Shown: positions 37,529 through 37,908 of the stretch, in pieces
Layout: every line of letters begins with the position of its first letter
Position numbering within the stretch: position 1 is the first letter of the stretch
Source of the DNA: Escherichia coli
Lineage (GTDB): Bacteria; Pseudomonadota; Gammaproteobacteria; Enterobacterales; Enterobacteriaceae
NCBI RefSeq assembly: GCF_003018255.1
Contig: NZ_CP027440.1
DNA: 64,000 bases
Reading direction: 5' to 3' (one strand)
Program-made: the position numbers and the translations under genes
Notes under the pieces: generated by a model
Told to the model about the DNA's origin: nothing
The model's database searches: none
What the model saw: the letters and a program-made list of their open reading frames with translations, nothing else

Positions 37529-37908
37529 AACAACCTCTCTTATAATTATGGGTATTCTACGGAAACAATATACCGTGGTGAAGCTAATTTACTCGATTGC
37601 TGCGATGACTACCTCCGGGGGACAAACCTTATGTAAATACTATGGTCCTGCGGTGATAATTTGTATGTGATACACAGCAACATTTCGAGATATTCATACG
37701 GCATCTAATACTGATTTAATTCTGGTTAAAATACAGACAGATAACAAGATGAATATTCTTAATGTTTACGTTAAAAATGTTTAATGTTATTTAATAGTTG
37801 TTAATTTGAATACTTCGATAATGTTATATTTCCTGATGATCATTTGCAGGCAAAATGTTTTCACCCTTAAATGAGTATTTATTCTCATAAATCGAAAAAG
37901 GATTCATT

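Follow-up and report, generated by a model that had tools for sequence, protein, structure and literature searches.

A 380-bp spacer at positions 37529-37908, between two annotated genes of a 64,000-nucleotide stretch of Escherichia coli DNA (assembly GCF_003018255.1, contig NZ_CP027440.1; this whole stretch is called the window below), is very probably a divergent control region. It would comprise two back-to-back promoter and leader modules, one for the micro-protein gene ypfM on the minus strand and the other for the yffB-dapE-ypfN operon on the plus strand, with fast-evolving AT-rich DNA between them. The spacer and its promoters, the flanking transcription units, the binding of RNA polymerase and H-NS, and the start of yffB in Salmonella are already present in the literature, and the finding is therefore of little importance in itself; the only new part is a candidate second promoter of ypfM, proposed from conserved sequence. 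In the arrangement proposed here, the right module would start the operon mRNA at an extended -10 promoter, with an unstructured AU-rich leader ending at the ribosome-binding site of yffB. In the left module, ypfM would be transcribed from a proximal promoter P1 and probably also from an activator-dependent distal promoter P2. The central core would be ordinary low-constraint spacer DNA, in which H-NS may dampen both promoters. The features of the two modules and the genes that they serve are the following:

37469-37528, minus strand: ypfM, a 60-nt gene of a 19-residue protein (peptide MIERELGNWKDFIEVMLRK), annotated in K-12 and other E. coli
37529-37561, minus strand: short ypfM leader, with the Shine-Dalgarno sequence GAGAGG (reverse complement of 37535-37540) and the P1 -10 hexamer; the most conserved block of the spacer
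37554-37559, minus strand: P1 -10 hexamer TAGAAT (reverse complement); transcription is predicted to begin at about 37547
37577-37582, minus strand: P1 -35 hexamer TTCACC, which is TTCACA in most genera
37639-37644, minus strand: -10-like hexamer CATAGT (CATATT in some genera) of the candidate promoter P2, with a predicted start at about 37632 and a leader of about 104 nt
37663-37692, minus strand: bipartite element reading AAAAT(A/G)TTGC(T/A)GTnn(G/A)TCACATAAA, with TCACA as the reverse complement of 37666-37670 and TTGC as that of 37677-37680
37700-37820, no strand: AT-rich variable core with a GC content of 0.231, poorly conserved and with many indels
37822-37830, plus strand: promoter of the yffB-dapE-ypfN operon, an extended -10 TGTTATATT (TG-n-TATATT) with no good -35
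37838-37908, plus strand: putative AU-rich 5' leader of yffB, with the Shine-Dalgarno sequence AAGGA at 37898-37902 and a moderately conserved motif TGA(A/G)yAtTTA near 37872-37885
37909-38265, plus strand: yffB, encoding an ArsC/Spx-family reductase and leading the yffB-dapE-ypfN operon

The first-pass annotation of the window had described a 380-bp AT-rich, gene-free region upstream of yffB. Its extent and composition were confirmed: the GC content is 0.316 against a window mean of 0.526, and only 0.09% of the 380-bp windows within the 64 kb are at least as AT-rich. Also the absence of a coding open reading frame (ORF) held, as no conserved ORF was found in the spacer. No gene lies inside the interval, but the spacer is upstream of ypfM as well, the start codon of which is situated one base to the left of the interval and had been missed. 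Since ypfM is present on the minus strand, the spacer is divergent and serves two transcription units, and the missed 60-nt gene thus changes the reading of what had seemed an oversized promoter region. The 40 kb around it contain four divergent gaps (145, 205, 288 and 380 bp), the spacer being the longest, but with two units to serve its length is not out of the ordinary, and the earlier remark that it is large for a simple promoter was overstated.

Three lines of evidence identify ypfM as a real gene: its peptide is conserved, its protein has been detected by mass spectrometry, and its mRNA is the Salmonella transcript STnc250. Of 80 Enterobacterales loci retrieved by a YffB query, 73 had the divergent ypfM/yffB arrangement, with YpfM peptide identities of 79-100%, and of 74% in the outliers Dickeya and '[Erwinia] mediterraneensis'. 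Top-down mass spectrometry has found the protein intact and formylated, with 100% coverage (PMC12529367). In Salmonella, STnc250 has been described as a short, Hfq-associated and growth-phase-dependent mRNA of about 220 nt in Northern blots (Sittka et al. 2008, PMC2515195).

The ypfM-yffB spacer was extracted from the 73 loci, where it was 202-1041 bp long and most commonly near 387 bp. The spacers of 345-415 bp, from 40 species, were aligned with MAFFT and had a mean identity of 0.53 to E. coli. The alignment included sharp conserved blocks at 37529-37561, 37577-37590, 37639-37645, 37662-37700 and 37822-37833, a weaker one at 37871-37885, and one at the yffB ribosome-binding site (37896-37906). 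The conservation profile across Enterobacterales thus has its blocks exactly at the promoter and leader elements listed above, and the sigma-70 motifs on both strands, P1 and the extended -10 TGTTATATT, are conserved in position. These elements of two divergent units, together with the published start of yffB in Salmonella, bear out the earlier suggestion of an extended regulatory region. In all 73 species the spacer was more AT-rich than the flanking genes (GC difference 0.184 +/- 0.036, in E. coli 0.206), and AT-richness is therefore a general property of the spacer.

The right module is best characterized through Salmonella. With at most one mismatch, TGTTATATT was found 65-109 nt from the yffB ATG in 33 species of Escherichia, Citrobacter, Salmonella, Enterobacter, Leclercia, Lelliottia and allied genera. 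In strain SL1344, differential RNA sequencing has placed the primary start P1390 of yffB at 2,594,953 on the plus strand, with a 97-nt leader and the promoter ...CAACAATGTTATATTGATTGCCG (Ramachandran et al. 2012, PMC3293720), and the same -97 start was used in the yffB::gfp fusion of Fröhlich et al. 2016. The Salmonella copy in the comparison, L130, is a metagenome contig found by using the published 18-nt Fur-box prediction as a search pattern, and it was recognized as Salmonella by three exact matches: this Fur box, the published marbox ACCCAATTTGATAAA, and the STnc250 model (125 bits, 100% identity). P1390 maps to position 7912 of L130, 8 nt past the TATATT hexamer. The promoter motif is demonstrated by its conservation, and the start, experimental in Salmonella only, is inferred by homology to be near 37838 in E. 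coli, which would give a leader of about 71 nt. The promoter resembles the extended -10 (TGn) sigma-70 promoters in having a TG one base before a 5/6 -10, no recognisable -35, and a start 7-8 nt downstream as mapped in Salmonella; it differs from them in nothing unusual, its activity in E. coli being expected by the same homology.

A different position has been predicted for the yffB promoter by Shimada 2014 (PMC3946193), namely TTCATA-16-TTTAAT, which counts against the placement preferred here. The two hexamers are present in the window at 37693-37698 and 37715-37720, and TGTTATATT is situated 105 bp further downstream. Because its TTTAAT -10 is unconserved, this pair is unlikely to be the main yffB promoter. 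The promoter of the operon, and with it of dapE, an essential core gene that starts 3 nt past the yffB stop, is better placed at TGTTATATT than at the published computational prediction.

The yffB leader showed no sign of a conserved fold: its z-score was +1.1, which is worse than that of the shuffled sequences, and no consensus pairs were found in 29 species. In Salmonella, a fusion including the leader and 25 codons of yffB is repressed by the small RNA (sRNA) SdsR (Fröhlich et al. 2016). The predicted duplexes of SdsR with the E. coli and Salmonella leaders were no better than those of shuffled sequences (P 0.04-0.66), and the best Salmonella duplex fell in the yffB coding region. In a Salmonella fur mutant, yffB has also been reported to be derepressed 2.6-fold; the Fur box predicted for it, 18-35 nt ahead of the ATG, overlaps the TGA(A/G)yAtTTA motif.

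Between the two modules, the core of the spacer keeps a constant length inside each clade (125-129, 136 and 146-148 bp). In 29 species its GC content varies from 0.23 to 0.40, E. coli having the most AT-rich core of them all. It is here that the main alternative to a promoter-centred reading has to be weighed, according to which the spacer is mainly a platform of nucleoid proteins (H-NS, possibly Fis/IHF), whose filament, nucleated on AT-rich and possibly curved DNA, silences ypfM and yffB-dapE, a reading that would account for both the length and the AT-richness. Shimada 2014 (PMC3946193) lists the spacer as type A, the class of divergent spacers with constitutive sigma-70 promoters (entry 55.80 min, ypfM<HNS>yffB), bound by the RpoD holoenzyme in genomic SELEX (systematic evolution of ligands by exponential enrichment) and holding one of 987 H-NS SELEX sites in vitro. 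This binding speaks for a platform, as do the core GC of 0.23, the lowest of the 29 species, and the several promoter-like TGTTAT/TGTTTA repeats within the core. However, all 73 species share the AT-richness relative to the flanks, as is usual for promoter spacers, A/T tracts show no excess, and the H-NS high-affinity motif TCGATAAATT is not enriched, with two 2-mismatch matches in the spacer and 75 in the window against 58 expected. Neither silencing nor horizontal acquisition is indicated, the locus being ancestral, with synteny kept across Enterobacteriaceae, and YpfM being readily detected next to an operon that includes an essential gene, which argues that the promoters are not silenced. 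The reading of the whole spacer as a platform is accordingly rather unlikely.

The locus shares low GC, in-vitro H-NS binding and promoter-like sequences in an AT-rich core with the H-NS-bound promoter regions of proU, bgl and hdeAB, but differs from them as an ancestral core-genome locus beside an essential gene, with neither a sign of silencing nor motif enrichment. As the locus is ancestral, dapE essential and YpfM abundant, strong silencing by H-NS is unlikely, and at most a modulating role is plausible for it. Judged from its composition, the core is the likely substrate of the reported binding. The earlier idea of a nucleoid-protein binding site thus finds support in the SELEX data but not in motif enrichment, and the in-vitro nature of the former together with the lack of enrichment also weighs against the H-NS part of the arrangement proposed here.

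The long A/T runs and short direct repeats that had been remarked on in the spacer were compared with chance expectation. Five A/T runs of at least 4 nt were observed and 6.6 expected, so that there is no excess over composition and the claim of long runs did not hold. Of the two repeats named earlier, AATGTT was clearly over-represented (5 copies against 0.35 expected; none of 2000 dinucleotide-preserving shuffles reached 5), whereas TTAAT was only marginally so (5 against 2.0, P ~0.05). The other repeat families in the spacer were short two-copy matches at chance level. The AATGTT copies are all on the plus strand (37761, 37776, 37783, 37820 and 37854), four of them in the core. The conserved yffB -10 includes one copy, and the others are E. 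coli-specific, one of these being mutated in K-12; a longer form, TAATGTT, is present three times within 37761-37859 (P ~0.0005). The copies may be what is left after the -10 region was duplicated locally, or else weak, secondary sites resembling promoters. The core also includes a PhoP-box-like repeat, TATTTA-N5-TGTTAA, at 37789-37805, 19 bp upstream of the yffB -10. The same positions are given as a PhoP matrix match in an entry of the supplement of Mendoza-Vargas 2009 (PMC2760140), and the repeat is confined to Escherichia, being absent from Citrobacter and Salmonella.

In the left module, P1 follows a simple pattern of a conserved -35, 17 unconserved nucleotides and a conserved -10, the last of which is placed 25 nt from the ypfM ATG in nearly all species. 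It was the only site reported by a mechanical promoter scan of the spacer, and an identical promoter, TTCACC-17-TAGAAT, was predicted for ypfM by Shimada 2014 (PMC3946193). The type-A entry of that work thus agrees with the present analysis in the locus and in this ypfM promoter, which is conserved here. It differs in its site for the yffB promoter and in that the more distal ypfM element is undescribed there.

This distal element and the hexamer next to it are the basis of the candidate promoter P2. In 59 species the minus strand has the consensus AAAAT(A/G)TTGC(T/A)GTnn(G/A)TCACATAAAATTT, followed by about 15 unconserved nucleotides and CATA(G/T)T. TTGC and TCAC were invariant in all 59, and the last A of TCACA was present in 97%. 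The distance of the element is 132-151 bp to the ATG of ypfM and 154-890 bp to that of yffB; since the former is constant and the latter variable, the element belongs to ypfM. The spacing to the hexamer was nearly fixed: measured from start to start, the hexamer and the TGTGA block were 27 bp apart in 53 species and 26 bp in seven, that is, TCACA-N21-CATAGT in the former and N20 in the latter, with unconserved sequence between. The hexamer itself was 86-88% conserved at -12 to -9 and at -7, with G or T at -8. With a start 7 nt past CATAGT, TCACA would occupy -38 to -34, and the 22-bp frame 37663-37684 would be centred at -41.5, without a -35. A site so centred and without a -35 has the geometry of class II CRP- or FNR-dependent promoters. 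The conservation of the element, its fixed spacing and its anchoring to ypfM were shown in the sequence comparison, and the promoter-like geometry points to P2 as probably an active promoter with a bound factor.

The length of the Salmonella transcript is consistent with this. Up to the STnc250 terminator, a transcript of about 228 nt is predicted from P2 and one of about 147 nt from P1, so the ~220-nt Northern band fits P2 and not P1. On these grounds TTGC-N8-TCACA together with CATAGT (37639-37692, minus strand) is tentatively proposed as a previously undescribed, activator-dependent second promoter of ypfM, which would be present in at least 59 Enterobacteriaceae species and would have an asymmetric site recognized by a factor of the CRP/FNR family or of the MarA type. 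P2 resembles the class II promoters (CRP at galP1/melR, FNR at nir-type promoters) in its perfect TCACA, the 21 bp to the -10, the lack of a -35 and the centre at -41.5; class II MarA/SoxS/Rob promoters, with a box overlapping the -35, are a further comparison. It differs from the class II promoters in that the distal TTGC is not a mirror of the proximal half and yet is invariant, so that the resemblance is in geometry only. If the proposal is true, the micro-protein would belong to a particular regulon of stress or metabolism. YpfM is conserved and abundant and has a deeply conserved element upstream, and naming the factor of this element would be the first clue to when the protein is needed.

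As to the factor, the E. coli core TTGCT-GTGT-ATCAC matches the FNR core at 8/10 positions and the CRP core also at 8/10, and in most genera the match is 6/10. The TTGC and TCACA blocks are not mirror images and are situated one helical turn apart, a spacing also compatible with a monomeric activator that has two helix-turn-helix motifs, as in the MarA/SoxS/Rob type. The sole published link of a factor to the locus is a chromatin immunoprecipitation sequencing (ChIP-seq) peak of plasmid-expressed MarA in Salmonella, ypfM<>yffB, at SL1344 2,594,769. It corresponds to L130 position 7728 (window ~37664), 2 bp from the TGTGAC block and 56 bp from the marbox assigned by its authors, and the sequence bound by MarA may thus be the conserved element rather than the assigned marbox. 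That marbox, ACCCAATTTGATAAA, was rejected as a feature of the E. coli locus: with the pattern AYnGCACnnWnnRYYAAAY, its counterpart ACCAGAATTAAATCA (37712-37726) lacks both recognition elements. Further readings of the element were discarded. A plus-strand promoter through the TTGAAA beside it has no conserved -10 downstream, and E. coli reads TTCGAG at that site; the sigma-54, IHF, PurR, CytR, Lrp and OxyR readings were poor or off-register in comparison by hand.

Several results weigh against P2 and against parts of the general arrangement. Core matches of 8/10 are not commoner in the window than by chance (39 and 51 matches), and the distal TTGC(T/A) agrees poorly with a CRP half-site (2/5; FNR 4/5). 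The literature search found no link of ypfM to CRP or FNR, and in the table of the paper with the Salmonella MarA peak the locus is not marked as bound in the E. coli datasets of MarA ChIP-seq or SoxS ChIP-exo (ChIP with exonuclease digestion). No ypfM start was found for Salmonella in published start-site data, and neither a ypfM nor a yffB start was among the entries listed from Ettwiller 2016, the ROSE paper and Mendoza-Vargas 2009. P1 could thus be the sole promoter of ypfM, with the conserved element a far-upstream site.

In this latter form, the bipartite element would be a far-upstream operator of P1, centred at about -127, or a site shared with yffB and acting on that gene too, and not a part of a second promoter. 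The better sigma-70 hexamers of P1, which is equally conserved, agree with such a role, and so does the Salmonella MarA peak on the element, as activators of this kind can act from upstream. On the other hand, the fixed 21-bp gap to a -10-like hexamer is the geometry of a promoter and would be needless for an upstream operator, the distance between the element and yffB varies by more than 700 bp, and the ~220-nt Salmonella transcript fits P2 rather than P1. An operator is therefore considered unlikely, and the element with its hexamer is retained as the candidate promoter P2.

An unannotated sRNA, which had also been suggested for the spacer, or a cis-acting structured leader such as a riboswitch or an attenuator, is highly improbable. 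In favour of it can be mentioned that ypfM was first catalogued as the sRNA candidate STnc250 and binds Hfq, and that the yffB leader is a target of SdsR in Salmonella. Against it, the Rfam scan at E <= 10 gave only noise inside the spacer, no terminator-like site was found within 37529-37908 (the sole ones being left of ypfM), and the current K-12 annotation has no RNA gene here. Conserved structure was not detected in either leader: in addition to the result for yffB given above, the putative long ypfM leader was without consensus structure (z = +2.6). The only small transcript is the known ypfM mRNA, which starts inside the spacer and exits to the left, towards the following features:

37370: end of acrD, separated from ypfM by a terminator hairpin
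37375-37410, both directions: bidirectional intrinsic terminator hairpin between acrD and ypfM, found in the terminator scan; 3' end of the ypfM mRNA

STnc250 and the ypfM mRNA are the same transcript, starting in the left part of the spacer and leaving it leftward. The Rfam model of STnc250 (RF01409), however, covers only the 3' 94 nt, which are outside the spacer, and the transcript is a coding mRNA rather than a regulatory sRNA. In the window the model matched 37370-37489 on the minus strand with 37.1 bits, below the gathering score of 42. The E. coli 3' untranslated region is about 26 nt longer than that of Salmonella and includes a GC-rich hairpin, AAGAACCTGCTCAGCGGGTTCTT (37421-37445); the lower score is due to these extra nucleotides. 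A suspected identity of ypfM with the sRNA candidate tpke70 was dropped, as the papers naming tpke70 did not link it to the locus.

Even less credible is the translation of the conserved central block into a tiny minus-strand protein of 22 residues, MNISKCCCVSHTNYHRRTIVFT: a same-position ATG/GTG and a similar N-terminus (M/V-N/V-I-S-K-Y/C-C) are present in Escherichia, Citrobacter and some species of the Enterobacter group, but an ATG-initiated ORF in that frame was found in only 26 of the 59 species and in none of Salmonella, Klebsiella, Leclercia and several Enterobacter, which nevertheless keep the invariant bases, the ORF ends after anything from 8 to more than 50 codons, the contiguous conserved blocks have no 3-base periodicity, and there is no Shine-Dalgarno sequence. 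With ORFs patchy and consensus structure lacking, neither an ORF nor an RNA structure explains the conservation of the element.

Some loci of the comparison were exceptional. Six of them (L010, L018, L050, L055, L060 and L069) have spacers of 713-1041 bp, two to three times longer, and in these genera the extra DNA is placed between the conserved ypfM element and yffB. The locus labelled as E. coli SCPM-O-B-8794 (L002, NZ_JAATUR010000003.1) has a YffB 91% identical to that of the window and a spacer core widely different from other E. coli; being about as distant as E. albertii, it probably represents a divergent Escherichia lineage rather than a typical E. coli.

Within E. coli, a 581-bp segment spanning the spacer matched many complete genomes at 100% identity and K-12 MG1655 at 98.5%, the latter in an ungapped alignment. 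Coordinates in K-12 are obtained by adding 2,553,338 to those of the window. The spacer was present in 5425 of the 5426 E. coli genomes, with less than 80% of it matched in 43. Hypervariability of the spacer within the species, considered because the ypfM spacer has served as a marker of host source, was rejected: the spacer is about as conserved as acrD, 2455 of the 5426 records having at least 99% identity to the window in the spacer and 2100 in a 380-bp piece of acrD. A piece of dapE (38500-38879) reached this identity in only five of the 5426 records and is thus a rare allele, and YffB differs from that of K-12 at four of its 118 residues. The pattern suggests a recombination breakpoint in or near yffB/dapE.

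In one of the 43 poorly matched genomes (E. coli F374; L182, NZ_OY754371.1, 3001-4039, corresponding to window 37624-38090), an IS1A replaces the spacer to the right of its position 95 (about 285 bp) together with the 5' half of yffB, and leaves ypfM with its proximal promoter, and dapE, intact. This replacement implies that yffB and its promoter are dispensable and that dapE is there expressed from elsewhere. Dispensability of the yffB promoter agrees with an internal start reported within yffB (~38184), 85 nt before dapE, which is a single-read 454 start with a predicted sigma-38 -10, aatgCCTGCAATTAtcaa, among the entries of Mendoza-Vargas 2009 (PMC2760140). This start is possibly an internal promoter for dapE. 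Elsewhere in the window, a second strongly AT-rich area at 61600-62850, in which the GC content of 380-bp windows falls to 0.305, includes a perfect FNR consensus, TTGATATATATCAA, at 61893-61906.

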